The notes beneath the pieces were generated by a model. That model was not told the origin of the DNA. It worked only from the letters and a program-made list of their open reading frames with translations, and did not search any database. A stretch of DNA of 63,916 bases, filler included, from Lenisia limosa (Eukaryota > Protista > Breviatea), in the NCBI GenBank assembly GCA_001655205.1. It is 11 parts of 11 records of this genome, joined end to end, with 100 filler letters (N's around TTAATTAATTAA, not from the genome) between each part and the next. Parts side by side here need not be neighbours in the genome. Positions count along the whole stretch, not along the records: positions 21,918 to 39,805 come from LPNZ01006315.1; positions 39,906 to 43,560 come from LPNZ01004650.1; positions 43,661 to 46,613 come from LPNZ01008952.1; 8 more parts are not named here. The stretch is one strand, 5' to 3'. The position numbers and the translations under genes are program-made. Below are positions 23,036 to 54,341 of this stretch, piece by piece; the stretch's first letter is position 1; the number at the start of each line of letters is the position of its first letter.

Positions 23036-23135
23036 TAGAGCTTCACTTTCGTTTCCAAAAAAGACTGAATTCTCGATAAATCCTCGATAAATATCGATAT
23101 TGTGTCGGTCTTTTGGAACCAAAAGTGAAGCCCTA
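23036..23135. mobile_element. hAT-like MITE family A copy, preceded by an orphan TIR (23008-23035)
   Basis: TAGAGCTTCACTTTCG...AAAAGTGAAGCCCTA, opposite orientation to the 2691 copy. No clean TSD. Confidence 0.75.
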
Positions 23136-23504
23136 TATTAATAAATCAGGCAATTGAGTACATCTGTCAAAGTTGTGTTGCTATGTTCCAATAAAATGAA
23201 GGAATTTAATGATAGCCGCCACCATTAACTAAAATTAACATGTATTTCTCATTTATTCAGAATTGCACACGTGATTCGAACGGTCAGTCAATGGATCATG
23301 AAGGGAATTGGAATTTATGTTGTAATTGTTCTGTAATACTACTTTTTATGTTTCTAACCTGATACAGAATACTGTAGAAGCTCACTTGGGAGTTGTGGTA
23401 AGCTAAAAATAACGATAAATCCTATTCAGTTACATTGCCAACTTGCATTCATGAGATAAGCTATATTTTTTGAGGCTCCCTTGAAATGTTTGAAAAAAAT
23501 TGTA

Positions 23505-26500
23505 CATGATATTTATGCAGAGTGCGATTTCAACAACATTACGAGATCTCGAAATCGAACTTCCTTACTTGGTAAGCATGTCACTGCTATCAAATCAATG
23601 CGTATTTTAAAAACAATATTCTCAAAATTGTCAATAAAAACCCTAACTTCTGGTATTTTGAATTATTTTAGTAATATTGTAGCAAACGAATCTGGTGCCT
23701 TTAATATCGAAAATAGAGGACCTTGATAAGGTAAATAAGTTGCTTGGAGTACAGATAATTGTAAATTAAATTTCAAGAATATTATCTGTATAAATCAAAA
23801 TATAGCTCTGTTATAACTGTTCAGTTTATCAGCTCTTCAAAACAAAATTACAATTTGTACATTGTTGAAGCTATTGGCTATTCGGTAAATAGTGCACACG
23901 GTTTGAGTGGTGGTGTTGACAAAAAAGACGGAATATTTTGATATACTAATGGGGGCTTTACAGTCTTTGCAACATCGATAGCCTTAATCTTTTTAGATAA
24001 TATGATAATATATCTCAGACCAGATATAGATATACATAACATACATGGATATAGTACATATCACATTTAGTTTCACAAGGGTTTATTTTCGTTCCAAAAA
24101 CGACCGCTAACATATCAATATAAATCGAGGAAGTTCCAAGTATTTATTCGTTTTGGGGATTGTAAGGAAGCCTAAGGTATTATTAACTCTAAATTAATAA
24201 TGTAACTTCATATTATTATTATCATGTATAATTATACAACAACTAACCATATCGTAAAAGCAATAGTGGTAACATACGGCCAAATACAATTAGACACATG
24301 TAAAATTGTTTGAACTCTGATGAATCGGTTGGTATCACCATTATTTACAATGTAATGTCAAGAAGTTGCGTACTATGCAAATCCAAATTAATTTATGAGA
24401 TTGTCAAAATCAGTACGAATCCCAAGTCGGTGACTCGTAGTGACAATTTGACATGTTACAACTTTACACAATCATAAACATCTAAACATTTTTGGTTGTG
24501 ACCATTCAGACTATGTATCAATCGCGTGCAAGCACTATGACACCCGCATCTATGTTAAGTGAGATGGATTGTGACTAAGTTCTTGTGATTGCAATTGTAA
24601 GTGTAATTTTTTATTGAAGTAATTTGTTAAAATAAAGAACACACTGCAATTAGATGGAGCATACGGTGAGTTTTTCCCTTATCAGAGATCTATTCGATGC
24701 CCATACATGGCTATATGATATCGATATATCATATTTTTGTTTGACACTAAATCGTACACTGCCTTAATGTTGATAATAATTTAAATCCCTTATTCTCTAG
24801 TTCTCTTTTGACGATCACACATTTTCCAAATAATCTTCGATTTGTTGGAATTGATGACACGTAAGGATGGATACCGACTCGATTATCTTAATTAATGGAT
24901 AATAAAATCTTGTATAATTTAGAAATACCGGCTAGTATGTCACAGAATACTTCATCACGATTTTCACAATTTATATTTTCATATTATTCACAAATATGAC
25001 TTGAAAATATCACTGCTTAATTCGAAATGATGATCCAGAGTGCCTTCGTTCTTTGCAATTGGCTACCTTGCTGGTCTGTTGACTGAATCTAAAAAAGTAC
25101 GTCACATGCTATACAACCATTTTGCAATACCAAGGAAATTAATAATAAATCTTAATTCGAAGCACTCTGGTGTACTTTCTCATTGTCCATATATTAACAA
25201 CATTTTTTTTGTCAATATCATTGTCCATATATTAACAATAGGTTGGAGTTGTTACTGGGAACAATTCTGACGTGCTACTGTATGGTATCGAAAAAGGTAA
25301 GAAAATTTAAGAATAACGATTTGAACTCAGGTCTTTCATACTCTCGAAAAAGACTATAGAAATAACGATATTTACCAAGTACTTCTACATTGTCTGTGTA
25401 CCATTACTCTATAATTAACTAAACAGAGAACCCTAAAACGGTGGCTCGAAATGAAACTAACAATATAACACCAGGTGTTGCCGAGTCTTGTCCAGAATGC
25501 AGCATTTTTGCCTCAACAAACGGCTACTTCAGCTCCGAGTTTTCAGTTTCCGACGCCCTCTCTCTTATTCAGTTATATGTAGGTAGTTCAAATATCTTCT
25601 TCAGTTATATGTCGGTATCTCCATCTTATTCACAATCTAAGTTGACACGTCCTTTACTTCTTATCCAGCTCTCCTTTGAAAATACCCCCACTCATATCGC
25701 TCCTATCCCCTATTCCCCTCCCCCTGTTCCACCATTTCTCACTCTTTTGTAATAGTTTTACAAAGAAACATTGAATATAATGAAGAATTTCGCGAAAATG
25801 AATGCATTTGTATTTCAAGAAACTGAAATATAGGATAATAACGAGCTGAATTGTTAATAATAAGCAATGCATAAAGGGACAATATCTTTAACTTTTTCAG
25901 AATACTGATGTTATTATGTCGCTCACTGATGGTTACACCACTTGCCAAGGTGGGAGAGTATCTGAGAGTCAAATGTCAAAAAACAGTAGAAATCGGGAAT
26001 AAACTATGAAGAATCGACTTGTAAATCCCATATTGCTTTTGGCAACCCCATAAATATCTACTTATTTCAATACCTCCATGGGATTTTAGTTTAAATAATA
26101 AAGCACTATATATTGATGAATATCAAGTCGATTCACCGTAGCATTAGAGTATATTCTCTCATAATACTCCAATATACTAGTATTTTAAAAATATCTTTGC
26201 ATTCAATTGAAGTCCTTCAATTTCAATATTATAATAACGAACAATATCTTCAATCAACATCGATGATTTGTTTGGAGATAGTGTTTCTACTATCAGAATA
26301 TTCTACACCTTTATAAATATCACCTCATAGAGATCATCAGGACCTATCACTATTTGTTATATTCAGCAGTTGTAAAGTATTTGATTGAGAACAACATTTA
26401 CTATTATCACCATTTATAAAAACATTTAGAAACATTAAAATATATAATTAACACCATTGTTGTCTGAATTTGCAACACAACTGTCATGACATGGCCTTTA

Positions 26501-27345
26501 GCCGTTATTAAGAACCGAGTGCTCTGTTCATCTCTGACTGGACCTCACAGAGGGATTCTTGGTGACTTTTTATTCACTTCTGGGGTAGGAAATTTACTAA
26601 GCTAGTTAAAGGGGACAGATGGGTAAATTTTAAAAAAGGCAGAAGGAAGCGGATTAAAAGTGGATACAATGATAGGAGTATCAACTGGCGTTATGTGACA
26701 ATATATTTTAAACACGATACAGAATTATTATACGAAAACAAAACAAATATAAGAGTATTTAGGAAATATTGCCGTATATGAAATATGATGAACTTTAGGA
26801 TCAAATAGCTCTTTATTAAGTTTATAATTCAACCCCCCAGATAAACCATTTTATTCTGATATCATCTTTTAAATTAAATGATCTTAACAAAAACACTGAG
26901 TAGCGGGATTAGTTTGCAACTCTCCGATTGCTAATCTTTTTAGATATTTTTGCCACATGATGAGTTCAAAGAAATGGTTTGTTTTACTATATGCAACTTT
27001 TTAATCCTCTCATACAATGATGAAAGTATTCTGATGGGTTTTAACATGTCTAATAATATGATTATTTCGCACAAACAATATACCTGAAGTAACACATAGC
27101 TTCATACAACATGGTAGTAGGGTGATGGGTCTGTGCTTTATATGAGAAGAAGATTGATAGTGGCATGTGAAACTAATGTGTAGACAATATCAGCAACATA
27201 TCATATGTAATTTAATAACTTAAATTGAAAACTGTCACCAATTATGTAGATCAATGCAATCAAAACCAAGACCTTCACACAACTGGAGCACAGAATTCAA
27301 GGGACTTACAAAATTGAAACACTTTCAAACCTTGTACCCAAAGAG
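23505..27345 (+). CDS. Exons encoding a BMP-family (PBP type-1, basic membrane lipoprotein-like) ligand-binding domain
   Basis: Exons 25039-25096, 25242-25296 and 25475- splice to VPSFFAIGYLAGLLTESKKVGVVTGNNSDVLLYGIEKGVAESCPECSI. Later exons give NTDVIM and YLLYSAVVK. These parallel the BMP motifs GYLA..TKT.KVG, GADVI and VLTS.VK. Confidence 0.55.
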
Positions 27346-29139
27346 GTTTGAGCTATCATTGATTTTTCGAGATCAATCAAGCCCCATTCAGAATTTTGTG
27401 ATATACCACGGCGCATCTCCTCAGTATTTGGAATTCCCGGAAATCTTCGGCATTCTAATAATGATTTTGGAAATCAACTCGTAATATTCCCAATTAATTG
27501 TCCCTTAATGTAAATAATTTTAAATTGAAGTGATAGACAAGTAGGGGCACCAAAAGTGAGAAATTGATTTTTCCGAGTTTTAATATAATTATATCAATCG
27601 ATAAATGGGTTTCATATGTGATTAAAATAGAGAAAATTTCCACAAGATAAACTATAGCCTACGAGTAAATAATAAAATGAGCATATTTCTCACGAAAATC
27701 TGGTTAATAAAAAGGAGATTGAGTAAATGTGTGTAAAACTGATTCACAATTAAAATTTTAACTTGGGCTGCTTATAACATATTGATAATAGCATTTATCG
27801 TGAAATTTACCCTTTATGAATCGAAGAAGACACTAATTATAAATAACATTACGTTCACAATTTCAGCTATAACACCCCCTTCTTTAGGTTAGTGCCAATT
27901 TTACAGAGTACTTCAATACCCACGATGCCAACCCTTTCTGCAAGCCTCATATTGAGCCAACTGGTAACCGAACCTGCCTAAATATTACGGAAATTGTCAA
28001 TTCCGTCGCGTATGAGGGGGGATTGGTTCTTGAATAATAAATTATCACATTTACTTTATATATAATTTACAAAATACAGCTACATAACTACGACTGATAA
28101 ATCCCTGAGAAATTCACAACTTTATATTTCAAGATGACCCTGTAGGAAAGATCCCTCTGAGTTCCTCAAGTTCACAATTGACCTCAGTGATGTACTTACT
28201 GGTAAGTCACCCACACAAACAGCGTAGTATATAAGCATGTCCTGTTCAACATAAACTCTCACAAAATAACAGCTTACAATACTGTTTGACCTAAGGGCGC
28301 GATTTATAAATTTTTTGAGAGGCGGTGTTTGTGGCGATATTTTCCTTGGTATTCATGAAGAAAGCTGGAGAACTTGGAGATGAAAATACTAAAACCGTTT
28401 GCTGGTAAAACTTTATTTGAATGAAATTTCATCAAAATTTTTATTTATCAATCGCTCATTTAAAAATTAATACTATTTGTAGCTTAAAAATTTAAAACCC
28501 ATCGCGCTCTAAGTCCAATGCTGTGACCTTAGTTCTAACTAGGGCTCCGTGCAATTAATTGAAACAATAATTGAAAAACTTGAATTTCACATACTGTCAT
28601 GTAAACTCAATTTTTGGCACTTTAATTTCTAGTTTTGTCGATTAATTTTTAAATTTGGCTTCTATATTCTTGAATTCAATTGATGATTTATGCTATTCAG
28701 TTGTGCCCAGTGAAATTCATAAACATTTAGACGGAGTATATGAGTTAGCGATGGGGGCACTTGAATGCTGCTATTAATTATGATATTGTAATTGTAATTC
28801 TTAATTTGCACATAATTTAGTTCTTAACTCAGAGATATACAATATTGTAATTTTTCTGATGTCTGAGATTTGTTTTGATTATAATTGAGACAATGAGCAT
28901 TTTACTTATTCTAATTAACCAGCTTTGACTTAGAGTGATATTAGGTCTTCGTGTAATGAACTTGTCAATTCATTGTATGAGTTCTAATTGATACATAGAT
29001 ATATAATATGTATGAGGAAATTTACTCTAAACAATAAGTAATATATAGTGGAAAATAGAAACTGCCAATCTTACAAATTAGGAAATTCAGCCAAATATTC
29101 AATTTCTATGGAAAACAATTAATATTGTAGGAAAACCAT

Positions 29140-30190
29140 TGATTTCTTGATATTCGACAAAACAAACCTCGAGGCAATCTACGACACAATTATTCCCTTT
29201 CAAATGACCATTGATGTGTGCGACAAAATGGAATTCACAGCTCGGACCCAACTAAGGTAAACCTTTATTATATTGTATAGAGATGAAAAATAATTCAAGA
29301 TTATATAACCGTCGCCATCCACACCATTTGGATACATTCAAATCCATAGTTAACAAAATGTTTAGCAACTCATCATACCAGACTGTCGTATCGAAACCCC
29401 CCATCAAAAGTTGAAATTGAGCCAAACCATATCTTCACAGTCTTTGATGAGGAATATATCCTTAGTAACAATGTGGCAAATGTCGTGGCCTTCCATATTG
29501 ATCGTGAGTTTTTATGGACTTTACAGTACCGTACATTTCATATGAAGTGACTGAGATAAGTCATGACCGATTTGCTCTGGGTTTTTCCTTAAACATTAGT
29601 CAAAATTTATCCGGTTACTGCATGTACATTGTTGAAACCGTCGCAGTATATTAGTATCTAGGCCAATTGTTTAAAATAAAATGCAACCGCGAAAATATCT
29701 AAAAAAAGTATTTCTATAATAAGAATAAATTGTGAGTAACAAATACAACAATAAAACTTGCTTTCATCAATCTAGATGTTACCCCTCTTGAACCAGGAAA
29801 CTGTTTCCTCGAAATTACCACGAAAAACGGCGATATTATCTCGGAATGGGCACATCTCAACTTCACTATTCCAGCATTGGACGATTCAAATGAGGTAAGG
29901 GGGTGCCGATTATCTTTGGTTCAACAATAGACTGAATTTGTTGATAAAAGCTGGATTTTTCTGATAATAATCAAATTTCTCGGAATGAATTGAAAATGTG
30001 CACACATAAAAGATTTTGATGTGCAAAACAAATATTACATCATGCATACGCGTTCCGCTAAACTGCAAATTAGCAACAGTATACGCATTATTTTAATTTC
30101 ACAAAATCAGTCTTCATTTATTCAGGATAGTACCAACTTTCTTCTGATACTTTCCGTGTTTGTGCTGATACCCATTTTGTTATTGGGTAG
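29140..30190 (+). CDS. Exons encoding an FN3-like strand set followed by a transmembrane helix
   Basis: DVTPLEPGNCFLEITTKNGDIISEWAHLNFTIP then DSTNFLLILSVFVLIPILLL, each with canonical splice sites. May be the same gene as the BMP exons. Confidence 0.45.
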
Positions 30191-30955
30191 GATTGGGAAA
30201 TTTTACCCCGACAGTAGTGTATAAACCCATAGAAATCCTCCAATGGAGAAATATTACAATTAATCTAAGAAATTTTGACTAATTATAGATAGTATTCAGA
30301 ATTCAGAAATATAAAAAGTTCGGATAATAGAAGAGTTGATAAGTAATATGAAAATTTTAGAAATTACAGTTAAATTCTTATACTGTTACAGTATTACCGA
30401 AAACGCCATGTTCCTTCACATTTCTGACAATCAGCATTCCCTGTATTTAGAATTTTGAAGAAGATCCATGGCACTAAGACCATTATTAATCAATTACAGT
30501 ACATTAATGTAAGCCGGGTAACAAATTTACATCGTTTTATGTTATCAAAGCGTAGGTTTTAAATAATATTTGAAAAGGTTTCAATTTTACTGTATATTTT
30601 TGAAGTTGATTACGATGCCTGCGGTAGTTATTAAAAAATTAGTTTGAAAATTCCAAATTGCATACTTACAAGAAACTTCCATTTCAAACACATGAACGTC
30701 ATGAAGTAGCAAGTACTTTTTGGACAAATGACAATTTTGATAATTTTCTTATTGTGTTTATCATCTTGCTGGTCCGAATATTCTGTTGAATATCATGTCT
30801 AAGTGCAATAATTTGTTGAGGTAATTGCCAAAATTTGAAATCAACGTGTCTGAAATTGAGTTTACATCACAATATGCCATACTTGAAGTTTTCCATTTAT
30901 TGTTAAATAATTACACAGTCAGTATATACTCTTGTTTTCATTAACTTCAGACGTC

Positions 30956-33900
30956 AAGCAAAACACGTGGAGGTGTGTCAAACTATCACGCATGTATAAA
31001 TGAACTTGACCAGCTAAGACAGGTATATAGTACACAAAAGCACATTAGTTTGAAATTCTTATAAAAAATTTGGGAATCCATAAATTCTTTCAAATTTTTA
31101 TTTAACAAATATGGGATTCAGTTGTTAATATTAGTAATTCCCCTTTTCATAAGTTTCCAAAGTCTACTTTATAGTGTCTTTAAATAAAAATTAACACTTG
31201 GAACACATTATGAAATACAATTATTAATATTTTAGGATATACTAAGATAATATGTGTGTTTCTTTAAATACCTAAATGAGTAGTATATATCATGATTGTG
31301 AATAAGGATATATCATATTCATCTCCTTGTTTTTTTTATTTGTTGCTAACATGTTAGTTGCTGTCTATTGGCGGAGTATCGAAGGCACTTAACCGCTCAA
31401 CCTATGGCTCTCTTGCCTCTGTCATCACAAGTAAGTAGATTATTTGGCCTAAAATAAGATATATAAAAGTATCAAAATACTTGTCTTTCTATTACCCAAA
31501 GTGATATCCAAATCGCTTGATATCCCAAAAATAAGACAAGCAGCAACTGTGTTAATAAAATATCATCAACAATAGTCACCCAAACTATGTTGTTGACAAC
31601 TTAATACCCCTGTTTTAGTACACTTTCCCTTGAAAATATTATACTTCGGTCCAAAAACACCCGATAAACTTCGTTATCTTACCTGTCTGTGTTTTTGAGC
31701 ATATGGCACATTAAACTTCCATTCTCTTAATCCAATATAGCAGCTTTTTACATATTATATATGATAAGATATACTTATATTATATTTCATATTATACACA
31801 TATTTTATAATATGAGAAAAATGAGTGTTTTATCTCATATGAAAATATAATACGATTTTACCATATGTAGAATAAAAAATATGATTATATTGTATATTGC
31901 ATATTATATGTGTATTAATATAGTATTTAAGATATAGCTGTAATGTATTTAGGACTGTCGCGAGTTGATGAAATTGCTGTACTTGATGAAACATCCAAAG
32001 GTAATAATATGATTAAACAATAGTTTCATTCCTTTTTATCGCCATCATTTACCGTTTTTAATGATTTTCTATGTATATTATCACCATTAATGATCATTCA
32101 GAAACCCTCAATGTTAAGCTGTTTATCTCGGATGAAGAAGTAAATAAGTCAAGAGTTATTACAACCTCGTCTGATAAGGTATGAACGGCTTTACCACATT
32201 ACAGCGCATAAAGTTGGGTTTTCCATCTACATTTTAGAATTGCCAACTTATTCCTAGTAATTTCAAAGTTAATACACCATAATAAACAATTATTTCTGTA
32301 TAAATTTGAATAAGTTCTGGTATTGAAAATATTAATTTTGCGATTATGAAAATATAATGAATTAACATATCTATATTTACAGTTTCAGTATTCTTGAATC
32401 CCAAGGGAGTCCTAATTATTAGCCATTCACCACAACCTCTAGAATGTAAAAATAACAGAATAAATTGTGATGTTTGGTCATGAAATTGCCCTATTGGGGG
32501 ATTACAAACCCAATTCACATTACCAGTCGGACACTCTTCTCAGCACAATGCCGCTTGAATATCCGCTCTGGTGGTACCCAAAGCCCGATTTAAACAAGGC
32601 AGTCCCGCGACTACCCGTAGAAATCCCCGAGTAAGCTTGGCTCTAGGAGGAGTGTAAGCACTATGGTCATAATATTGATTTGATATCATATTTGTTTTTT
32701 GATAAATGTATGCATGATAAACCAAAAGAACTTTATTGTATATTTTAGCAGTGGCTAAGTGAAAATTGCCCGTTAGAAAAACTACATGATACCCATATCG
32801 ATATATATTGACTGTTCATAACTTGGACTACTCTAGGCTTATCTAATTGTTGTTCTGCATTTGGAAATCAGATAAATTACGTCCGATTTCTATAATCACA
32901 AGCTGTTTACACAGAGTTATAAGGCAAATGACTGGGAAAATTAATATTCTTATAAGCGTAATGTTGTGAACTGCTTCGGCCAGATACAACCTTGTTTTTT
33001 ATTTCTCATTGCTATTTATCACAATGGTTACCAATGTTAACAAGTTGATACGCCGAGTATATCTTACCGTAAATGTCGGGATCATTGATTCATTTTTAAT
33101 GATTCCTCTAAATGGTAATCTTGATTCTTATTAAGCAATCTTTCAATATAACAATACAGCTATTTATTGAATTACTATTTCATATTATTTAAAGACATAA
33201 CTCATGATCTTGAATCAAATTTATACATTCTATATCAAATAAAATGCATACATGTATATTTTTCTTCAATAACAATTTAGTCCCCCATTTAGGCTGGTTT
33301 CCTTTATCGACGCTGCAACCAGGTAAGTCTCTTCATCTCTGTTGCCGTAAACTTCATAATTAACAACTACATCAATACATCACTCTCACTTTCACTAATA
33401 TCTTCCCAAATGACATCAAAAGTCTTCCCCAAATCCAACCATACCCCGTGTCTTAAATTCAGTGAACATTTTTGAGGTTATCTGTTAGTATTAATTTATA
33501 CTCAATTTATCTTATTAACGCTTATTTTACAAACAGAACAGTTTTTTAACATTCCCAGGGTATCGTATTCAATTCAGAAAGTTGTTGCTGAACCATGGTG
33601 TACCTTTGACCCGATTGCGCTCGATCTTTTGGATCCTGGTATGCAGTGTTTCATTTTCTTTTGTTTAGTATTACAGCCCCATAATTTCTATATAAATTTT
33701 CAAATAGTTACATGGAATTTCCATGGAAATAATGTAAATACCAACTGTTTAATAAGAATACCAAGTCAATTCTCGGGAATAAAGCGAAACATTTTCCACT
33801 GAGGATGAATTATACAGTTGACAAATATTAAAAAATGTGACTTCCATAAACACAAAATAAACAATGCATTCTCAATACTATGTGAAATAAATGATTAAAT

Positions 33901-34376
33901 ATGTATTATTTCTATTATATTACATGATATATATAGTATAAGACATATGTTTACATTCCTATCTGATAATATTGACATTGTGTAATGTTTTTGACAAATC
34001 TACAAGACATAATACTTGAATGTGAGCTACTTGTCATAAATTCAACAGGTAACACATTGCTCCACACAGTCTCTTACCTGCTGCATGACTTCGATTGTCC
34101 AATCCGCGACCTAGTGATCGGTGAAAAATTCATGTATGTTACTTTTCATAGTATCAAAATATTGAGAACATTTCATTTATGATTGAAATAGTTGGACATT
34201 TTCATTTTAAATGTTACGATATCGTTATCAAATATCATACGGTGACAGTTTAGTGTATTTTGCTGCTTGACAAGATTTTAGTTCAGGAAAAATTCTTACT
34301 TGGTGTTAGATATTGGAAAATGATAGTATGACTTCGATTGACCAAACCGTGACCTGTGATGGTGATAAGTTCATGT
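30956..34376 (+). CDS. Scattered small exons, probable cytoplasmic part of the same receptor-like gene
   Basis: Open AG/GT-bounded exons (YHACINELDQLRQ; PLEYPLWWYPKP; GNTLLHTVSYLLH, weakly ankyrin-like) ending ...CDGDKFM*. Confidence 0.3.
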
Positions 34377-35376
34377 AATCAATTTATGGTTATTAAATAT
34401 AGTAAAGATAATTTCTATATGCATATTTAGATGAATATATTGATACAGTTTCAATTAAACTGGTAAGATGCCAATATCAAATACATATTAATGATGAGAG
34501 TTGGGAATGCTGCACAGGATATATTGTTTTGAGGGAAATTTGTATTTGTTGATAATTATTGATAATGGTAAATATGACTTAGACTGTCTAATTGATGATC
34601 TTGTGATCGTTGACAAGTTCAGGTATGGTAATTTCATGGTTTTTCAAGAGAAAAATTCATGCCATATTCCACCAATGTCCGATAATTTCAATTTTTTTAA
34701 TCTCATATTTTACAATCTAAGTGTTTAACTTCTATTTTTCACCTAAATCAGATAACAAATCAGACTCGAGTGGTAATCCCATTGATTAATTTATCAGGAA
34801 ATGGGTGCACGTGGTGTCACACTGCTACTTTGATTTGCCATACCACAACTCCCTCCTTACCAGCTTGGTATGCTCAGATATTCTTACATCTGAAGAAAAG
34901 TCTCTAATTCTCTTTTGGATTTTCAAGTTAATGCGCTGTGTTTTGTAACATACATTCTTCAAAACCTCAAATTAATCTTCCAGGCGTTAAAGTGTTTAAG
35001 TGAACTCCTTGTACTTGACGGCAAGTTAAAGGGATTAGATAATCTATTTTAAAAACCCAAAAACTGTTCATGACATTTTGAAAGATATTCATTTTTCCTT
35101 GCCTAATCAAAGCTTCTTATTAAACTTTGTACTTGTATGTTTCTTATTCTTTGATTTTTCACGATTGAGTCTTCACTCCAGTGAAAATATGATCGGTAAA
35201 GTATCAATATATTAAGCTGATAATATCAAGAAACTTAGGCATTTCTGGATCGGAGCGAATCTTTATCACACTAACATTATTTTGTTTAGTAACCTGGAGC
35301 CTCTGGAAAAACTAGCCATCTTCGCAGCTACTACTGCAATGAGCGTTGGACATTTTGGGTAGGAATAAACGTTTTG

Positions 35377-35441
35377 AAGGGCTTCACTTCGGTTCGAAAA
35401 AGCCCCGTAAAATATCGATAAAAATCCGAAGTGAAGCCCTA
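35377..35441. mobile_element. Internally deleted MITE family A copy
   Basis: AGGGCTTCACTTCGG...CCGAAGTGAAGCCCT perfect inverted termini only 65 bp apart. Confidence 0.75.
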
Positions 35442-36627
35442 GATAAACGATAATAATGTGTTGAGGCGATTCTGCTATGCACCCCAGAACAAATACTATG
35501 TCCCTTTCACTAGTTGTTTTGGTATTATAACGAAGACTTCATTTTGTTCGAAATAAATGAATTTTTCTATATGTTTACGATATTTTGTGATAATTTATTG
35601 ATCTTTTTCCACCGAAGTGAAGCCCTAATTCTAATGGACGTGTAGCTTCAACAGCGATACCACTAAGCATCCATCCCAATTTGAGTACTTTGGTCACTCG
35701 GTGAGATCATGAATAATTTGTATTTTTGTCTTCATTTTACCTGTTCTTAAAGCTATTTTGAACAAAAGAAAGAATAGGTGGATACACTAATAGCAGGTCT
35801 CCAAAGCTTTTTATATAAAATATGGGAATTGGGAACTCCAAATATTTCACAAGAATCCCAGGGCAATAGGCCAGTAGCCAACTATTTCTTCTTGACATTC
35901 TCATAGAATATGAGAAAGGCAATATTATGACAGTTTTAGGTTATGCAAATGTACAGTGCAAGCCAGGCAATCAAACTTCTGAGAATTGAAGAACTGCATT
36001 TTCTCGTGCCTTCTATAGACTGGTATGCTATCAAATTGTTTAAAAGACTTGAATATTTCGTAGCTTCTTGAAACTCTTAATGTGCGTTGTTATCAAGTTC
36101 TTAAATGGTTATAGGGTTATTTACTGCTATTTTGATGCTATGTCTTTGTCTTTCTATAAACAATCTTTGAAGCCAACCTAATTTTCTATTATCAGTCGTT
36201 TTGAAGCCATCCTAATTTTCTATTATCAGTCACTTTTTAGCAATCTTAACTATCTAGGCTTGCGTTCCGTGACCTTTTTGTAAAAATTATCCTTGCCTCC
36301 GATATGCACCACCACTTCAAATACGCGTCTATTTTGGGAAATAAAGGTGGGAACAATTATATAGAAATTGTTGCGTTGCTTTTTAACAGTACTTTCCATT
36401 TCAAATACGCTCAATCTATGGCAATAAAACTCACTGTTGCATTTATATTTACCGCTTATTTTATCGAAACTCATTACGTACTATAAAAGTTATAAAAGCA
36501 GTCCTATTTCTTCCATTCAGCTCCCAAAGTGTAACTATCAGACTTGTTGGACTCTTCCTCAAAACTTTGCATCTTCATGAAGGTTGTTTCTATGAGGTTG
36601 GGAAATGTGATATATTTTACTGGATAT

Positions 36628-36830
36628 ATAGCAAAGAGAAAAAAAAAATAAGGCTGTATCTGGCTGAAACCGCCCACACCACCACGCCTATACAAGATAT
36701 TGGATAATAGTATAATATTTATTCACCCAATCTTTGCCTGTGTACACAGCTTTCTGCCTCCCCAGCATATTATTTCACCTCATTTGCCTTATAACTCTGC
36801 GCACACAGCTTTCTGCGTGCCTCTAAATTT
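36628..36830 (+). repeat. Repeat family B, longest copy
   Basis: Colinear with 5551-5710. The 3' CACAGCTTTCTG motif is duplicated. Confidence 0.75.
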
Positions 36831-37432
36831 TTAGATAGTAACAATTACAAAGATAATCTTTCCTTGTGTTATTCATCAGATGGTAGTTCATATCTGACTG
36901 TTGATGGGATATTTCTTAAACATTTTTACACTTTAACTATTTAGAATTTATATACTTGTAATAATATACAAAACCTAGAATTCTAATATACAGACACAAT
37001 ATGATTTCTCTTATTCAAAAAACAATCCTCAGATAACACGACGTTTAGTGTGATGTTTCGGCACGATACCCAGTTTTGGGTTGATGCATACCACGAGGAA
37101 GTAGCGAAATATGTTGGTTTGGAGTGAGGGCTTCATTTCGTTCCAAAAAAGACCGGTAAATTATCGAGTTTTCGACAATTTATCGGTAAATTCAGTAGTC
37201 TTTTAGTAGGAAATATAGCACGTTGTGGTTTTTTTACAAGGAGTTTTCCTCAACAAAAAACTCTAATTAGCAAATAGTAACAAAAGAAAGTCAATCTCGA
37301 GAAACAACCTGAGGGGAAATTCGAATGGAAAACACTTGAATCGGGATTTCAATTTTCCAGTAGTTTTCCAGGATACAGTAATTTTTTTCAAAAAGTTGTT
37401 TCCATTCCAACTGTCAGGAACTCAAAACATCT

Positions 37433-37662
37433 CAGCACTTAGCTGTATTTAGCTCATTTTGTCTTAGCTATTTTTGGGTGTTTTAGAGCTAAATACAAAC
37501 CTGACGCTGTTTTAAAACGCTACGTACTATATTTAAGATTTGTATTAAGAGATAAAGAGAGGCAAAAGCCTCTTAGAGAGAAGAGAACAAAAAAGTAGTT
37601 AGCTTAAATATTTTGCTAAGTCACTGCGAAGTACAAAATGAGCTAAATACAGCTAAGTACTG
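37433..37662. mobile_element. 230-bp MITE-like element with 30-bp TIRs
   Basis: CAGCACTTAGCTGTATTTAGCTCATTTTGT ... ACAAAATGAGCTAAATACAGCTAAGTACTG (29/30 inverted match). No TSD found. Confidence 0.8.
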
Positions 37663-38740
37663 AATGCTACGGGCTCCAGCCAGGGTAGTTCATGAGTTAC
37701 AATTAATGTAGTGAGGTTGAAGAAACGTCAAATTAGATCTGGCGAAGACGCCTACATCACCATGCTTATTGGATTATAGAAGTGTATTAATTGAGCTCAT
37801 TTGTCGTTTTTAATATGTAAACATGGAAAAAAAGAGGTAAAATCTGAATTGGAGGAAGGAATTACTTCTAGACGGTAATAACAATTTGGGTTCCACTTCG
37901 GTTCGAAAATAAATTTCTAGATAACCTCAAAAACTATCCATATTTATCGATCTGTATGAAACCAGAGTGAAACATTAGTTACAATTTGCAGGACCCACCC
38001 TACAATGTCATAAAGCCCTGTCGCCAGGATCTCGAGTGGGGGGGGACTATTTTGATCTTTAGTTGGAGTGGAGGGTTACTGTCTTGATTTTATGTTTTTG
38101 CCAGAGCGGGCGCTGTCTTTAAATCTTGATGTGGAGCTGTTGTTCAAAACTGACATCTTTCTGAATTGAAACCAATTCATCTAGTATATCATATATTGAT
38201 ATGCAATGCTGCAAGAGTAGAAGGGACCCAGTTGATTGAATTGGAATATTGAAATAAATTTGAGGTGAGCCATATTCGGAATCATTTCAGACTCTTTAAT
38301 TTCAATTTCCAACTAATTTCTTCACAAATAAATTGCATTTAGCCCTACTTTCTCTCGAAATTAACACACCAGCTTGATCTTCTACCCGTTTATGGTGTCA
38401 TTCGAGAAGCAGTTCTCAAGTTTGAACATGTCTGAACAAGGTGCGGCAGGGCTTACCAGAATTTGAATTCTACACTACTGCGCATCGACTTGAAATTCAC
38501 ATGTTGTATTTGGGAATCCCATAAATTTCTTCAAATATGCAACGGAATTGCCATGGAAAATATGAGAATTCCCGTTTCCAAGAATCTCAAGTCTATGCGC
38601 GGTATAGTGTAATTCTGAAAATGCTTCATGGATTGATATAACAACGGAAGCGGACCGTGCTGGTTTTTGACCCGTCCAATAATAGTCGAGTCTGAATGGT
38701 CAAAAACCAGCACGGTGAGACCACTAGCCGTTCGGAATTA

Positions 38741-38870
38741 TATCGGAGTACGAACTTATTTTACATCACAGTACGAACTTATTTTCTCATCAATACTGTA
38801 TAATATAAGATGAATAATAGTGTCAAAAATAAGTTCGTGCTATGATGTAAAATAAGTTCGTACTCCGATG
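38741..38870. mobile_element. 130-bp TA-flanked MITE (Tc1/mariner-type)
   Basis: ~45-bp TIRs (ATCGGAGTACGAACTTATTTTACATCA.AG.ACGAACTTATTTT). TA at 38739-40 and 38871-72. Confidence 0.8.
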
Positions 38871-39907
38871 TATGAGGCCCAGACCTTGCTCCATGGATTC
38901 TAGCTAAAAAGAGGGTATTTTAATGACGAGAGAGAGTGAGTGTGTGTGTGAATGTGGATGGTAGTGATGTTGGCTGAATGCGTATATTGAAAAACGATAG
39001 ATTGGATAGGACTTACAAAACACCTGCTATTTAGTCAAAAACGCCCCTTGTTACATTTTCCATTCACTGTCGTCCAAAAACAAAAATGAGCTAACTCGAC
39101 ATGGAAGCTATGCATTGTTTTGAATGTAAACACTGAATCCACCTTTTTTATACCAATCTAATGCCGAAGTCACCATTCTTGCTTCTTAGTACTTACCCAT
39201 AAAGGTTTCAAGAATCTTACAGATCTCAAGTGGACAGCAGAAGATTTTATTTAGTTTTTGATATTCTAGGATATTGTAGGTTAATATAATGTAATTGGAG
39301 AGTTGGAGAAATTTGGAATCTTCGTGAATCTTAATCCAGATTTATTATTTGAATATTTTCCAATGAAAAGTGGACACTTTAATTTCTAATTTTGTCAATT
39401 AATTTCTTCAAAAAATCAATTGCACGGAGCCCTAATAACTATGTATTTATAAACCGTAAAGCTATTAGTATATTCTCAGTTTCTGGGTTGGCACCCTGCT
39501 TTAAAAACAAACAATTAATAATTATACAGTGAAATGCAACCAAAATTATCTTGAGAAAGCACCTTGTTGAAAACACACATTTAATGTACATCCATCCTTG
39601 AAAAAAACATCCAAACACACCAGACATAGACTCATGAAATCAGCCCCCACTCTATTTCTCTCTCCTCCTCTTCATCAAAACATCTTCTTCTTCTTCTTCT
39701 TCTTCTTCCCCTTCTTGCTTCTTGCTTATTTTCCCCTTCTTCTTCTTTTTCTTCACTCATCATCATCGCTACTTATCACTTCAATTGCGGCAGTTGCTCT
39801 ACCAGNNNNNNNNNNNNNNNNNNNNNNNNNNNNNNNNNNNNNNNNNNNNTTAATTAATTAANNNNNNNNNNNNNNNNNNNNNNNNNNNNNNNNNNNNNNN
39901 NNNNNAA

Positions 39908-40249
39908 AAATTATTTGCTCACTATTTAAAGAAAGGAGTTTCAACATTTTTAATATCCCAAAATTTTTCTAAGAGTGTTCCAAGTCAGAGCAGAACAAAT
40001 TATAATTACTTTATAACTTTTAACGTTCCAAAGAAGTCATCAGATAGTCAAGCAATAAATAAATTCATATTATCATCCTCTTTTGGTTTCAATGATAAAG
40101 CATCAAAATTAGTAGATGAAGTTAGTCAAAACCAATATGTCTTTGCTGTTTTTGATAGAGAGAATTTGACGGGGTTAAGAATTAAAGAGGTAGATGGTGT
40201 TGAAGAGAATTGTAGATGTAGACTTAAGTTTGATAAATTTATAAATTAA
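39908..40249 (+). CDS. A32/FtsK-like genome-packaging ATPase, C-terminal 113 aa (5' truncated; not in the ORF track)
   Basis: KLFAHYLKKGVSTFLISQNFSKSVPSQSRTNYNYFITFNVP...QYVFAVFD resembles the post-Walker-B region of Polinton ATPases (LF...H..S.I...QN...R.N..Y...F..P). Walker A/B lie outside the scaffold. Confidence 0.62.
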   Translation, partial: KLFAHYLKKGVSTFLISQNFSKSVPSQSRTNYNYFITFNVPKKSSDSQAINKFILSSSFGFNDKASKLVDEVSQNQYVFAVFDRENLTGLRIKEVDGVEENCRCRLKFDKFIN

Positions 40250-40277
40250 AACATAAATTTATTTTTCTCTTAAAAGA

Positions 40278-41069
40278 ATGGCTCCTAAAAATTTTCAAAT
40301 TATTGTTAGAGGTGAATATAACAGTTCTCAAACGAATCCTATTTATTATAACGGCTCTGAGTTTGATTTAAATCACGATGCATATGAGTTTAGAATTGTG
40401 AATGCAAGGTGTGTTGTAGCTCATAAGAATATCAAAAAAGATTATAAAGATAAATTTGTTATGTCTGATGGTGTTAAAGACTATACCATAACACTAGATC
40501 CCGGTAATTATTATGCTTCACCATTATTTGACGAAATAATTGGACAACTGTATGAGAATTATTACAATGATTTTCTCGTAGATGTAGATGGACAATCAAC
40601 CTTTCAAGAACCTTTTTCTATTTCAGATATCCCTGCTAAAGGAAAAATTAAAATTATACGAGCAGATTCCAAGTATACAATTGATTTTATCCAGTCAACA
40701 TCTCTTTCTTTATTAGGTTTTACTGAACAAGTTCCTATTGAGAATAATGGGTTAAATGAATATTACGTGGGTAATCTCCCTCCTCATACAAGTAATGGAA
40801 TCAGTGTTTACAATATTATTTCAAATTATATTAAACAGAATGGTGGAGGAAAAGATAATAAGATAATGGCTACTCAGATGATAAATGTTGCACCATTTGA
40901 ATTTTTAGATTTTCAAACAAATATAGAACCTTCTTGGTATTTGTATAATAATAATAAAGTTGATAATAATTTATACTTTACTTTCACTGATAATAATAAT
41001 AAGAACATTGATATGGGTGAAGAAGAAAGTTATATGGTTGTGCAATTTAGAAAAGTTGAAGAAAAATAG
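40278..41069 (+). CDS. Minor capsid protein (penton, single jelly roll), Polinton/PLV type
   Basis: 263 aa with penton-type motifs YEF, NI...KF, TITLDPGNY, IDF...SL.LLGF, PSWY and F.D.N...IDM.EE. Confidence 0.8.
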   Translation: MAPKNFQIIVRGEYNSSQTNPIYYNGSEFDLNHDAYEFRIVNARCVVAHKNIKKDYKDKFVMSDGVKDYTITLDPGNYYASPLFDEIIGQLYENYYNDFLVDVDGQSTFQEPFSISDIPAKGKIKIIRADSKYTIDFIQSTSLSLLGFTEQVPIENNGLNEYYVGNLPPHTSNGISVYNIISNYIKQNGGGKDNKIMATQMINVAPFEFLDFQTNIEPSWYLYNNNKVDNNLYFTFTDNNNKNIDMGEEESYMVVQFRKVEEK

Positions 41070-41110
41070 AAAAGATTAAAATGATAATTAAAAAATTTAT
41101 TTCTCTATAA

Positions 41111-41275
41111 ATGGTGCGAAGAAATTTAATACTATTCGAAGAGGAAGAAATTAAAAATGAGGTTGTAAAGAAAGTTGAAATAGAAATTCCAAAGAAAGTA
41201 AAATCAAAATATAGACCAAAAGAATTAAGAACTAATAAACTTGAAAAACACATTTGGAAAAATTTAGTATCATAA
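41111..41275 (+). CDS. Small K/E-rich viral ORF, 54 aa (not in the ORF track)
   Basis: MVRRNLILFEEEEIKNEVVKKVEIEIPKKVKSKYRPKELRTNKLEKHIWKNLVS*. It fills the penton-MCP gap and has the same upstream motif as its neighbours. Confidence 0.6.
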   Translation: MVRRNLILFEEEEIKNEVVKKVEIEIPKKVKSKYRPKELRTNKLEKHIWKNLVS

Positions 41276-41327
41276 AAAGTAGATAAATTTAAAAAATTAA
41301 AAAATTATTTTTTTAGCTACAAAAATA

Positions 41328-42840
41328 ATGACAAACTATTCAACTAAAATTTCGGATAACTCAAAAGACATCTTTAATGAAAGTGTTCTCTCACCACTTT
41401 TTGGAGAAGTGGTTGGAGGAAAATTAACTTCTCAACCTGATACTAGACATTATACTAATGCTATTAATAATAGTAACGGTACATCTCTTATAACATCTAC
41501 TACTGGTGGAGAAAGGTATAAATTCCCAATTCCAGCTAATACATATATTAAACCATCTCACATTCGTGTTATGTACCATGTAGAAAATAAGAATGGAAAT
41601 ACCTATGGTGAAGAAGCGGATGCCGACGCTAAAACCGAATTTGGTAATATTCAAATTAGAAATTGTAATTCATCAGTATTTAATAAAGTTGTTCTTCAAT
41701 ATGATGGGGATGACGATGAAGTTACGATTGAAAGACCCTATTTACAAGAATTAATATATAATATGAAACAACCAGGATCTCCAGATGATGAATTATCTAC
41801 TTCTTTTGTTAAACATGAGAATACTGTTCCTGCAAATAATAATTTGATTGATAAAGACAATAAATTTATTCGCAATATCGATGGAACAACTGAATATAAA
41901 CCTCGTAAATATGGTTTTTCATCTTTTAAAGAACGTGAAACTTTGTGTCAGCAAGTTGATAAAAGTGATAATAATCTTGGAGTTATAAATGTACCTCTTG
42001 ATTGGTTATTTAATGGAAATCAATTTTTCTCTAAAGGTGTTACATTTTCAGTATATCAGAACAATAGTAAAAATATTTTTAGTTTTGCTGAACACCCTGC
42101 TGATGCTGTATATACAACTAATGAAATTAATAGTTATGAATTTAAAATTCATTTTATGGAATTAATATATGATGAAATCCATCTTACTGAAGAATATAAA
42201 ACTAAAATCAAAGCATATCGCGACAAAGGTAATTCTATTGTAAATTTAGTTAATACTGTTTCATTTAAAAATAAATTAGATTTCCAAAATGATATAACTG
42301 ACAATCATGAATATAAGTTGAATAGGATTAAATTACCAAGTGCTGTACTTTTTGGTTTTATGCCAGTTGATAATGCTGATACAATACATAATTTTAACAG
42401 TGATAATAGTTTTTACGGAGCTTCTGCCGATGGAGCCGGAGTTAAACATAATCGTCGTAAATTATCTGAACAAAGAACAACTTTACCTTATGATAAATTT
42501 AATCTAAAGAATTATCATATTAAATATACTGGTGATGATAATGTTGAAACTAATATCCCTAATAATCCTATTACACTCAAACAACATCCTGATAAAACAT
42601 ATGAAACATTTGATGTATATAAACGTTTTATTCGTTACTTTGGAGATAAGTGTCCTATTGATTNNNNNNNNNNNNNNNNNNNNNNNNNNNNNNNNNNNNN
42701 NNNNNNNNNNNNNNNNNNNNNNNNNNNNNNNNNNNNNNNNNCCTCCTCCTGGTTATGAATTAGTTGTCCTCCCTATTTATAATAATATCTTTACTCAAGA
42801 AGGAACTGCGGGTGAATATAAAATTAATAAACGTGTTTAA
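41328..42840 (+). CDS. Double-jelly-roll major capsid protein, Polinton (PY)/PLV type, ~500 aa with an internal N gap
   Basis: Colinear with the Polinton MCP consensus: FPIPANTYI, SVFNKV..YDG, PYLQELI, VPLDWLF.GNQF..GV, FKI..MEL....I.LT, KLPSAVLFGF, F.L..Y.I...IP..PI. Continues after gap 42664-42741 as GYELVVLPIYNNIF...KRV*. Confidence 0.85.
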
Positions 42841-42889
42841 AATATAACAACTAAAAAATATAAAAAATTATTTTTTTATCTCTAAAAAT

Positions 42890-43522
42890 ATGTCAGTGAA
42901 TTATCCCAATGTAAATGAACAACCTCCTCCTCCATATAATCCATATAGTACACCAACTTATGATTGTGGGGAGCACGAAGCTCCAGATGGTAAACGTAAC
43001 ACACCTTGTCCGAAATGTAAAAAAATAAATAAAGAATTAAAACCAGCTGTTACAAAAGAAGAAATTAATTATGAACAACTAGATAGAACTAATAAACTTA
43101 TTCATGATTTCAATGATTTTGGTTATAATATTTTGGTTAAGAGAGCTCCAAGTGATGGTGTATATCTTAGAGATTTAACTTATGGAAAGAAATTAATAAA
43201 GATAGCACCTTGTGATGATAAATATCATACAGTTTTAATCAAACAATCTAAGTTTGAGGAATTATATCACAATATAAGTTTAGATGTTGATGGTGTTAAG
43301 AATCATTTAAATCAAGTACAAAAACAAAACGGGTCCTGTTGGAAATATTTGTTTGATGAAGATTATAAGAAAAAAGTTCTTCTACCAAATCAGAGAGATA
43401 TTTTAATCCCAAGTTTCTTACAAAGACATAAAAAGTTAACCACTATTACGACAGGAATTACAATCTTTATGGCTCTCACTAATTTTCTTTTTCCCGGGTT
43501 TAGCGCCGCAGATTACTTATGA
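42890..43522 (+). CDS. Unknown viral membrane protein: N-terminal PPPPY, putative C-x2-H...C-x2-C zinc site, C-terminal TM helix
   Basis: 210 aa containing QPPPPYNPY, DCGEH...PCPKC and the hydrophobic tail LTTITTGITIFMALTNFLFPGF. Confidence 0.7.
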   Translation: MSVNYPNVNEQPPPPYNPYSTPTYDCGEHEAPDGKRNTPCPKCKKINKELKPAVTKEEINYEQLDRTNKLIHDFNDFGYNILVKRAPSDGVYLRDLTYGKKLIKIAPCDDKYHTVLIKQSKFEELYHNISLDVDGVKNHLNQVQKQNGSCWKYLFDEDYKKKVLLPNQRDILIPSFLQRHKKLTTITTGITIFMALTNFLFPGFSAADYL

Positions 43523-43764
43523 ATATGATTTTAATATTTCTGGTGGAAATAAAAGTTAAANNNNNNNNNNNNNNNNNNNNNNNNNNNNNNNNNNNNNNNN
43601 NNNNTTAATTAATTAANNNNNNNNNNNNNNNNNNNNNNNNNNNNNNNNNNNNNNNNNNNNGAGCTGATGATGGTATTTGTTCTTCGTCAACTGATATGTT
43701 TTAGCCGCTCCGTCTCCATGTTTTTATACGTGAACGAAAATTGCAAAAGAAAGAAATACTATCA

Positions 43765-53039: not shown

Positions 53040-54341
53040 GGGGCGGCGGGGGGAGGTGCTTGCTGCATTTGCATGCCAGGAGCTACATCAATAAATAAGA
53101 CATGTGGCAGTATCTCGAGTGCAAAAAGGTGTTGGATCTTGCTTTTACGTTGTATTTCTACTTAAAAGCAAAGGGTTTAAAATATCTGGCACATATTAAA
53201 ATAAATCCTCAATATTATCTTTGATGGCAACTCTTTAGCTCAACAAATTCCTTCCAATGAACCTTTTTGATAATAATGAAGAACTCAGAGAACAAGAGCT
53301 TTGGACTATGGCTTTCCTCAATATTTGTCGGAAACAATCATTCAAATGTTCTTATTGCAGTAAACAGATAACCCCCACCAATCGCACCTGGAGGAGGAGC
53401 CGACTGTCTGTTCATAGCTATTGAGAGTCCCTCAATCATGGCAAGGATAAGACCACCAAAAAGGCCAGATTTGAGGGCCATGCTCGCCCCGCTTCTCATT
53501 GCCAGAACCGTACCAGTGGTGGCTCCTAAGGAGATCACACATTTGCGTGATAAAATAATTATTAAACAAAAGAATTGATAATGAAAGTCAGGCAACGCCT
53601 CAGTGTAAACGGTTATAACTCCATTAAATCTATAGAGATGAGAAAGAAAACAAGGATATCTCTGGCCGAAACCGCCCACACCATCACGCTTATAAGATCA
53701 CCTTGTACTGTTTACTTAATTCTTATTATGCACAGAGAATGGTCATCTCAGCTTTAATAATATGTAAGGCTCAAGGCAGAAGTTACCTGTGAACAGACAT
53801 TCCCCCCAAAATATAACGGAGTTTGGTGGTTTTCCCTTTGAAACTTATCATCTGGTCGCCTCTAACCCCAACTCACCCGAAAGAATTGCATTCCAAGAAT
53901 CCTCTTTCTGTCTGATATAGGCATATGTGCAGTCGAAAGCAGAGAAAAGACCACCCCACACTCCAAAGGCACCTTAAAGATCAATGCAATGTTGGTAGTT
54001 CCTTGATATAGCCCTTCCCAATAAGAAGCTCGTGGTATTAACTTTTAAATTTAGCCACCATACCACTTGTTCTGGGCACAGACCTCCTCACAAGACGGGC
54101 AGTTCCAATGAGTCTCTCACCCTAAACAATGACGATCCCAGTCATATCAACTTTGTAAAATATGCATTAAATCCCCTCAAACCGATGCACAGGTCTTTAA
54201 ACCCTTGAGAGTGTACCAGACAGTTCCACCAACAGCGCCAAAGGCAAAGGCCGAACCAATATCTTCAGGAACTCGCCAGGGGCAAGGCTAAATAGTAAGT
54301 CTTCATTTTAATAGAGGTGGACATACCTCTCTATCCGCCAT
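53040..54341 (-). CDS. TIM17: Mitochondrial inner-membrane translocase subunit Tim17
   Basis: [26 protein letters not shown]...[15 protein letters not shown]...[25 protein letters not shown]...[10 protein letters not shown], the hallmark Tim17 motifs across at least 5 exons. Confidence 0.93.

Follow-up and report, generated by a model that had tools for sequence, protein, structure and literature searches.

A probable virion-building module of a very divergent polinton-like virus in a Lenisia limosa genome assembly

The window analysed here, a stretch of 63,916 nucleotides joined from 11 records of the Lenisia limosa assembly, includes one scaffold of 3,655 nt that raises two questions: what kind of virus its genes come from, and whether that virus resides in the nuclear DNA of the protist that was sequenced. 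An initial annotation had described a separate AT-rich scaffold with five plus-strand ORFs and short spacers (28-52 nt), and had read them as the capsid module of a polinton-like virus. The measured layout agreed: GC content was 0.277, compared to 0.330-0.429 in the other 10 scaffold pieces of the window, ORFs covered 3,445 of 3,655 nt (94% coding), and the spacers between the five co-directional ORFs were 28, 41, 52 and 49 nt (Table 1). The longest open frame arising by chance in 200 dinucleotide shuffles had 127 codons and none of the shuffles reached at least 210 codons, so the frames of 263, 445 and 210 codons exceed chance, which together with the five-gene block bears out the presence of the module. 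At least 113 codons were reached in 8 of 200 shuffles, and the ATPase stub taken alone is not beyond chance. The dinucleotide signature was ordinary among the window scaffolds (delta* 61 vs 34-100), and the only distinctive points of composition were GC content and a lack of G/C runs. The scaffold is flanked on each side by an N44-TTAATTAATTAA-N44 linker; no host junction or terminal repeat was in view within it, and no terminal inverted repeat stood out. On balance, the scaffold is probably a piece of the gene set with which a polinton-like dsDNA virus builds its virions. Three or more variants of this virus occur in a single sequencing run, and several copies are likely integrated in the protist's nuclear genome.

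Table 1. Features of the scaffold, in positions of the window
Feature	Position	Strand	Basis or remark
Whole scaffold	39906..43560	.	AT-rich, gene-dense fragment of small dsDNA virus; both ends cut
P-loop ATPase 3′ end (residues 170-282), likely A32-type genome-packaging motor	39908..40249	+	Comparison with P0009; motif definition PMC11703096
Box copy 1, likely promoter	40255..40277	+	AAATT(T)ATTT, then T run, short CT(T)A core few bases before ATG
263-aa likely minor capsid protein (penton)	40278..41069	+	Atlas feature look-alikes
Box copy 2	41093..41110	+	Contains TCTA, ends TAAATG
54-aa charged ORF	41111..41275	+	15 K+R, 9 D+E; 61-aa ORF at same place in L001
Box copy 3, upstream of MCP	41302..41327	+	Shared upstream box
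Major capsid protein (MCP), predicted double jelly roll	41328..42840	+	Fold comparisons; 521 aa in independent record P0006; assembly gap 42664-42741
Box copy 4	42865..42889	+	Contains TCTA
210-aa ORF	42890..43522	+	N-terminal PPPPY stretch, C-x2-H...C-x2-C cluster; variant present in run X1

The MCP frame contains a scaffold gap of 78 N, which shifts its reading frame in the window. The P0006 protein, encoded on a 13,263-nt contig, is identical to the window MCP on both flanks of the gap, with 131 nt implied to be missing, and the gap is thus an assembly artefact rather than a lesion. The module, first described as intact and uninterrupted, is therefore interrupted in the window and uninterrupted for this gene in the independent record. 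Three fold comparisons of predicted models, one of them using a separate model, point to the double-jelly-roll (DJR) fold that had been proposed for the MCP. The ESM Atlas model (pTM 0.64) matched seven listed clusters with TM 0.62-0.69 over 392-446 residues, of which the first, 86% Eukaryota, reached the threshold for PF21738, a DJR-like domain, and the others carried Sputnik MCP or Capsid_N domains. Our own model, of low confidence (pLDDT 40.6), was compared by Foldseek with BFVD, where bracovirus, adomavirus LO7, asfa-like, MELD and adintovirus capsids led (E 1.8e-8 to 3e-5, at a TM of only ~0.2), and with the PDB, where DJR capsid proteins, Sputnik and mavirus included, made up 23 of 24 rows among the matches listed. 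VIA-align against 48,161 chains placed DJR proteins at all of ranks 1-7 (Z 7.4-9.0, rmsd 10-13).

Some of the matches lead to bacterial viruses, since the capsids of PRD1, PR772, GC1 and Wip1 were among the fold matches and the top Atlas feature clusters for the MCP were labelled Uroviricota, on few members. A search of 185,579 prokaryote genomes also returned a single locus, L001, which is a syntenic sibling of the window scaffold (74% nucleotide identity, conserved gene order) filed in a Colwellia-labelled genome bin. A tailless DJR bacteriophage of a culture bacterium, tectivirus- or corticovirus-like, would account for these observations, but we regard it as very improbable. The MCP has 521 aa, whereas those phage MCPs have 353-399 aa, and most of its nearest neighbours by structure are eukaryotic clusters. 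A G-rich stretch of Shine-Dalgarno type was absent, read by eye, from all ten listed starts; no PHROG matched at E <0.01, and tblastn against INPHARED gave only two records, at E 0.3. L001 itself is a stand-alone contig of 5.0 kb with a GC content of 0.29.

Searches by sequence returned no relative outside the family itself, in line with the divergent lineage that had been suggested. Pfam, PHROGs and NCBIfam contained no capsid or A32 family matching the window proteins, and neither P0006 nor the second MCP, P0007, matched any Pfam family at E up to 1. A PDB sequence search with the MCP alignment came back empty, Sputnik and mavirus chains included, and the two-sequence MCP profile, run against 1.84 billion protein representatives, matched only itself. 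Scans of IMG/VR (MCP, the MCP, ATPase and penton alignments, the fifth ORF, and a divergent ORF of L001) and of JGI metagenomes, both of which require exact peptide words and miss distant kin, yielded no relative. Two 10-residue MCP words were absent from those supplements of PMC10120064 that we consulted, which hold representative sequences only, so that the lineage may still be a published one. Having neither an HMM match nor a relative among the 1.84 billion representatives, this MCP belongs to a lineage invisible to sequence-based surveys.

Of the proposed packaging ATPase, the window holds only the last 113 of 282 residues, which lie outside the Walker motifs. The full protein, P0009, comes from a contig with the same length (13,263 nt) and source as that of P0006 and has GPSRSGKT at residues 40-47 (Walker A), AVIFDD at 146-151 (Walker B) and Gln187 at the sensor position, which upholds a P-loop ATPase for the complete gene and leaves the window with a stub. 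Walker A, Walker B, an arginine finger and a sensor Gln make up the A32/FtsK-HerA motif set defined in PMC11703096. None of the 37 residues from Walker B to the Gln is an arginine in P0009 or in its variant P0010, whereas FtsK/HerA-type motors have their arginine finger there. The profile match was to Pfam ATPase_2 (E 1.8e-8), with FtsK_SpoIIIE at only E 0.03-0.18 and no match to the Pox_A32 profile; a PDB sequence search gave chance matches only.

The 263-aa protein, which is 72% identical to its sibling P0008, is likely, on weak support, the penton or single-jelly-roll minor capsid protein (mCP) that the initial annotation had named. What favours this assignment is language-model resemblance: Atlas features were 0.97-0.98 to viral clusters of 253-336 aa, one of which has Sputnik V18/19 on 26% of its members, and the best look-alikes were labelled Nucleocytoviricota. 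Its single jelly roll is putative; the AlphaFold model was unusable (pLDDT 29.8; 0 fold matches at E up to 0.001). The protein had no Pfam match, a PDB sequence search with the penton alignment was empty, and the penton and MCP profiles showed no similarity to each other. The 54-aa ORF possibly encodes a small virion or DNA-binding protein. The 210-aa ORF has a moderately hydrophobic segment near its C-terminus, at residues 183-201 (Kyte-Doolittle 1.52).

An AT-rich box precedes nearly every gene start, and the observed level of sharing was reached in 0 of 500 shuffles at both L=12 and L=16. In a held-out test, the profile built from the four window boxes put all 6 L001 starts in the top 8 of 183 ATGs, including two starts with no counterpart in the window. 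The conserved part is the AATT(T/A)ATTT stretch, and 4 of 10 starts have the strict TCTA. The box is loosely similar to the T-rich/TAAAT/TATA/TCTA late promoters described for poxvirus, ASFV and CroV (PMC5294985). As TCTA is found at so few starts, and the full window-derived regular expression had just 2 matching sites in L001, this link to giant viruses amounts to a resemblance. A CroV-specific TCTA reading was accordingly downgraded once L001 was considered. The spacers do not read convincingly as Mimivirus-style hairpins, and this idea was rejected: just 1 of the 4 folded better than its shuffles (11/300).

The scaffold could also come from a very divergent virophage (Virophaviricetes) or a small member of Nucleocytoviricota such as a mriyavirus, groups with the same three core genes, in which the virus's own or a helper's late transcription would read the box. 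This would fit the Atlas matches, where a cluster of Nucleocytoviricota had the best TM by query (0.69) and TM was 0.65 for rows carrying Sputnik MCP domains, as well as the Sputnik and mavirus matches in the PDB, the resemblance of the box to late promoters and the sharing of MCP, mCP and ATPase with mriyaviruses (PMC11253617). We nevertheless consider it improbable: no HMM match was found to the Pfam virophage or NCLDV capsid families, the search of 1.84 billion representatives gave no relative even though virophage MCPs form one sequence cluster (PMC10120064), and no protease, VLTF2 or VLTF3 is among the genes seen in the window and L001, about 5.6 kb of the element in total. Neither the window nor L001 showed a host-virus junction, a terminal inverted repeat, an integrase or a polymerase, the element being truncated; pPolB, integrase and terminal inverted repeats had likewise been noted as not visible. 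[quoted passage not shown] The likely identity is a very divergent polinton-like virus, and tens of thousands of this kind are already known from protist assemblies.

The window copy was found in one public DNA run, X1, together with L001-type sequence and a third variant. Among 14 X1 contigs matching the scaffold, none covered it from end to end and 11 were <90% alike, and the ATPase variant in X1 equalled P0010 at 28 of 28 changed codons checked. Four of six loose-end or joint strings matched L001 exactly and two differed (4/25 and 7/30 letters), thus indicating the third type. Depth in X1 was 32.9 for the window copy and 45-132 for the variants, values that are not to be read as copy numbers. 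The variants are separated by a dS of ~0.5-1, with dN/dS of 0.094, 0.177 and 0.234. Open frames had been taken to suggest a recent or active element; with dN/dS of 0.09-0.23 they indicate past purifying selection and not present activity. No RNA dataset was listed as containing the stretch, and the polyA run X2 had 0 contigs matching it, which is not evidence of silence.

The sample is mixed: one library of the study has the label metatranscriptomic, and the bin that contains L001 is bacterial. Neighbouring scaffolds of the window are eukaryotic, with CDC73_C exons found by Pfam. One of them has what we take, by eye, to be an intron-split TIM17-like gene, whose 28-aa exon had no Pfam match. 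Of 673 open stretches of >=40 aa in the host scaffolds, the 147 longest were scanned with Pfam, which found CDC73_C and AAA exons only and no further viral gene. The mixed sample, the differing depth of the variants and a stand-alone AT-rich scaffold that shows no junction are consistent with the same kind of virus being free, persistent or episomal, or being an element of another eukaryote present as contamination. [quoted passage not shown]

Judged from the known biology of Polisuviricotina, the MCP would assemble into trimeric capsomers that make up an icosahedral shell, the 263-aa protein would close off its vertices and the ATPase would drive the genome into it. The box would turn on all genes of the module at once, most plausibly when a co-infecting giant virus supplies its machinery for late transcription, as with mavirus-type elements; in other circumstances the copies would be silent. 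Short-read assembly would break such a repeat family into stand-alone contigs, of which L001 in a bacterial bin may be an example. A bolder reading, which we find doubtful, is an undescribed deep lineage (family- to class-level) of small DJR viruses, endogenous as multiple variants in a poorly sampled protist, with all genes on a giant-virus-type late promoter and a packaging motor using lysine or a relocated arginine instead of the canonical arginine finger; such a virus would be a virophage by lifestyle without the virophage capsid.

Endogenous polinton-like viruses in protists are, as a general phenomenon, already well documented: over 35,000 MCP matches were reported as endogenous viral elements in 462 protist genomes, with many diverged variants per genome that assemble as separate short contigs (PMC10120064). 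Within this background, the MCP can serve as a capsid seed for missed endogenous viruses and as a point for a structure-based Polisuviricotina phylogeny, the shared box as a means to identify a giant virus of the host that acts as its helper, and the ATPase lacking the arginine as a natural variant for testing the A32-type motor mechanism. The filing of L001 is a caution on contamination of genome collections.

Compared with known systems, mriyaviruses (Mriyaviricetes; PMC11253617) are alike in being small genomes with MCP, Sputnik-like penton and ATPase, but the known fragment has neither of their diagnostic VLTF2 and VLTF3 genes and no detected sequence similarity. Mavirus, type-4 EMALEs and Sputnik share the DJR fold, a similar MCP length (chains of 503-515 aa), endogenous families of several types whose upstream motifs differ by type, and TCTA in AT-rich context, here at 4 of 10 starts; they differ in that no virophage MCP HMM matched, what is conserved in the box is not TCTA, and no protease was seen. 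Mavericks/Polintons and adintoviruses (PF21738; MELD virus, adintovirus and adomavirus LO7 in BFVD) supplied the top structural neighbours of the MCP, although no HMM-level match was found, the MCP is longer than the 424-459 aa of the eukaryote-dominated Atlas rows, and pPolB, rve integrase and adenain were not seen in this truncated element. PLVs and endogenous Maverick-Polintons of protists (PMC7805220, PMC10120064) differ in the lack of a detected sequence link to described MCP groups and in the usual arginine-finger residue of the ATPase, and are alike in carrying MCP, mCP and ATPase in one compact block, in a highly diverged MCP recognisable by structure only, and in their many variants on short AT-rich contigs.

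The window was assembled from 11 scaffold pieces separated by N44-TTAATTAATTAA-N44 linkers, and the piece at 39906-43560 had the lowest GC content in the window (0.277; other pieces, 0.330-0.429), no G/C run of six or more, and a coding density of 94%. Five plus-strand ORFs were found in this piece, with intervening spacers of 28, 41, 52, and 49 nt, and open frames of at least 210 codons occurred in none of 200 shuffles. The five co-directional ORFs of the initial annotation were recovered in orientation and spacing, but the first is a 113-residue stub. The capsid ORF, described there as uninterrupted, is broken in the window by a 78-N assembly gap that shifts the frame. An independent major capsid protein (MCP) record of 521 aa, P0006, located on a 13,263-nt ENA contig, matched the capsid ORF identically on either side of the gap, implying that 131 bases are missing there. 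One ENA record each was found for the proteins of 263, 54, and 210 aa and for the complete ATPase of 282 aa (P0009). All have 13,263 nt as the length of their longest contig, from which we infer that they sit together on a single contig from a different assembly.

Among 5.8 billion proteins, word-based searches with the MCP, the likely penton, and the ATPase each retrieved the query itself and one sibling only, with identities of 66-69%, 72-73%, and 89%, respectively. When a two-sequence MCP profile was run with HMMER against all 1.84 billion representatives, the MCP itself was the one match; as this profile is shallow and limited in reach, the null result indicates a very divergent protein rather than an unrelated one. 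Scans of IMG/VR and JGI gave no match. These searches agree with the divergent lineage proposed initially. No naming family was found for the window proteins in Pfam, PHROGs, or NCBIfam, except the generic ATPase_2 for the ATPase (Pfam, E 1.8e-8).

The double jelly roll (DJR) fold proposed for the MCP is nevertheless well supported by structural comparisons of predicted models. The ESM Atlas model of the MCP gave TM 0.62-0.69 over 392-446 residues against all 7 listed clusters, the first of which reached the bar for PF21738 (DJR-like), with Sputnik MCP or Capsid_N domains in others. An AlphaFold model made from a two-sequence alignment was poor (pLDDT 40.6). Its 46 BFVD matches at E<=0.001 nevertheless included DJR capsid proteins at TM of about 0.2, with entries from bracovirus, adomavirus, asfa-like, MELD, and adintovirus sources at the top, and DJR capsid proteins made up 23 of the 24 PDB matches listed. 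VIA-align against 48,161 entries placed DJR proteins at all of ranks 1-7 (Z 7.4-9.0, with high rmsd). Since these matches are spread over the entire DJR lineage, they do not place the MCP in a class.

The 263-aa protein, initially called a penton, showed language-model feature scores of 0.97-0.98 against viral clusters, one of which has 26% of its members annotated with the Sputnik minor capsid family. Its own structure model was unusable; the protein is a likely penton. In P0009, Walker A (residues 40-47), Walker B (146-151), and Gln187 were located. An arginine finger would be expected about 11 residues ahead of the sensor Gln; both P0009 and its variant P0010 have no Arg among the 37 residues from Walker B to Gln, with Lys177-Lys178 there instead. 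By one published definition, the marks of a viral FtsK/HerA packaging ATPase are the two Walker motifs, A and B, together with an arginine finger and a sensor Gln (PMC11703096).

A search of 185,579 prokaryote genomes recovered a 4,998-nt sibling contig, L001 (GC 0.29), from a Colwellia-labelled bin, a placement that is most likely a binning error. L001 has the same gene order as the window (ATPase, penton-like gene, small ORF, MCP, and start of ORF5), with 74% identity across 2.8 kb and dN/dS of 0.094 for the ATPase tail, 0.177 for the penton-like gene, and 0.234 for the MCP. The N-terminus of ORF5 in L001 differs from that in the window, having short Pro-rich repeats; the PPxY-type stretch seen in the window ORF5 may have a late-domain role. 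L001 additionally contains a divergently oriented ORF of 393+ aa with no family match and no relative in Pfam, PDB, or IMG/VR.

Features of the window and of sibling contig L001
Feature	Coordinates	Strand	Observation
Charged 393+ aa ORF	L001:3-1181	-	Divergent from ATPase
Spacer, ATPase/divergent ORF	L001:1182-1220	both	39 nt; shared box on both strands, resembling a bidirectional promoter
Whole sibling contig	L001:1-4998		Eukaryote-type virus contig in Colwellia-labelled bacterial metagenome-assembled genome, GTDB-based collection
ATPase segment	39908-39961		Arg-free, Lys-bearing, at expected arginine-finger place; both variants
ORF5	42890-43522		PPxY-type stretch at start, Cys/His cluster, hydrophobic end
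CDC73/parafibromin exons	4163-5362	-	Host
Katanin/spastin-like AAA ATPase exons	62718-63515	+	Host
Intron-split gene	53340-54340	-	Visual inspection: several short GT-AG introns
Gap-free 17.9-kb scaffold	21918-39805		GC 0.33, few G/C runs; no Pfam match among its longest open stretches
Short dispersed host repeat	159-3000, 6775-6987, 61880-62530		Apparently recurring (similar translated words, several open stretches)

The DNA sequencing run X1 was the sole public run in which the window stretch was present, at 0.86 of the words sampled. This run is not independent support and may be the source sample. Among its 14 contigs on the stretch, one matched over 2,360 nt with no differences (depth 32.9), while 11 were less than 90% alike, with depths of 45-132 for the variant pieces shown. 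For the X1 ATPase variant, 30 of 32 listed differences were checked, leaving out two that adjoin an alignment indel. They changed 28 codons, 19 of them synonymously (19% expected), introduced no stop, and agreed with P0010 at all 28 codons. Four of six loose-end or joint strings in X1 were exact to L001, and the two that differ point to a third variant type. All knowledge of the lineage may derive from one data set.

Each of the four spacers contains AAATT(T)ATTT, then a T run, then a CT(T)A core just ahead of ATG. The sharing of the best 12- and 16-mers among spacers was equalled in 0 of 500 shuffles, that of the best 10-mer in 8, and that of the 20-mer in 1. The full box pattern, defined post hoc, was found at the four spacer sites only when both strands of the whole window were scanned. 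In a held-out test on L001, a profile of the four window boxes placed all 6 gene starts among the 8 best-scoring of 183 ATGs. These 6 include the starts of the ATPase and the divergent ORF, both without counterpart in the window. TAAA+T occurred at 8 of 10 starts; the full regular expression had only 2 sites in L001 and strict TCTA only 4 of 10 starts, which disfavours a narrow reading of the box. Published reports describe TCTA in AT-rich context as the CroV/ChlorV late promoter, common to mavirus and type-4 EMALEs, with the CroV response confined to the latter (PMC8547959, PMC10945749, PMC13196603, 10.1101/2025.10.09.676808), and poxvirus and ASFV late promoters as a T-rich core plus TAAAT and TATA (PMC5294985). 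Halocafeteria virophages have been reported to carry CroV-like motifs (10.64898/2026.07.28.741278). Overall, a promoter is the most likely identity of the box. A polinton-like virus (PLV) sharing its helper's promoter has been described (10.1101/2022.07.28.501842), and a giant-virus helper as reader of the box is plausible, with chances close to even; the alternative reader is host RNA polymerase II.

The other window scaffolds were eukaryotic and exon-fragmented, and of their 673 open stretches the 147 longest included CDC73_C and AAA exons by Pfam. The intron-split gene, presumably TIM17-like, suggests a host with a mitochondrion-derived organelle. No host-virus junction was visible around the piece within the window, and the polyA RNA run X2 gave 0 contigs on the window stretch, which has no firm bearing on expression. 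One survey of protist genomes reports more than 35,000 MCP hits in 462 genomes, falling into 73 clusters, many confirmed solely by structure and nearly half on contigs that did not exceed a virus genome in size; a single genome could contain many non-identical variants (PMC10120064). Because the module and its variants show the pattern reported there, we favour an endogenous family as the moderately likely origin, and consider a free or foreign virus rather unlikely.

The module is real, viral, multi-variant, under purifying selection, and unusually isolated in sequence. By sequence, its MCP did not qualify as a virophage MCP. Mriyaviruses are described with the same three genes, and their diagnosis requires VLTF2/3 (PMC11253617); many MCP groups are reported to lie still outside ICTV classes (10.64898/2026.10.13.758929). 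PLVs are defined, in one account, by an MCP plus a minor capsid protein, along with a packaging ATPase, with group-specific and highly diverged sequences (PMC7805220). The element appears to operate like a PLV, and the module is a fragment of an already well-known kind of virus.
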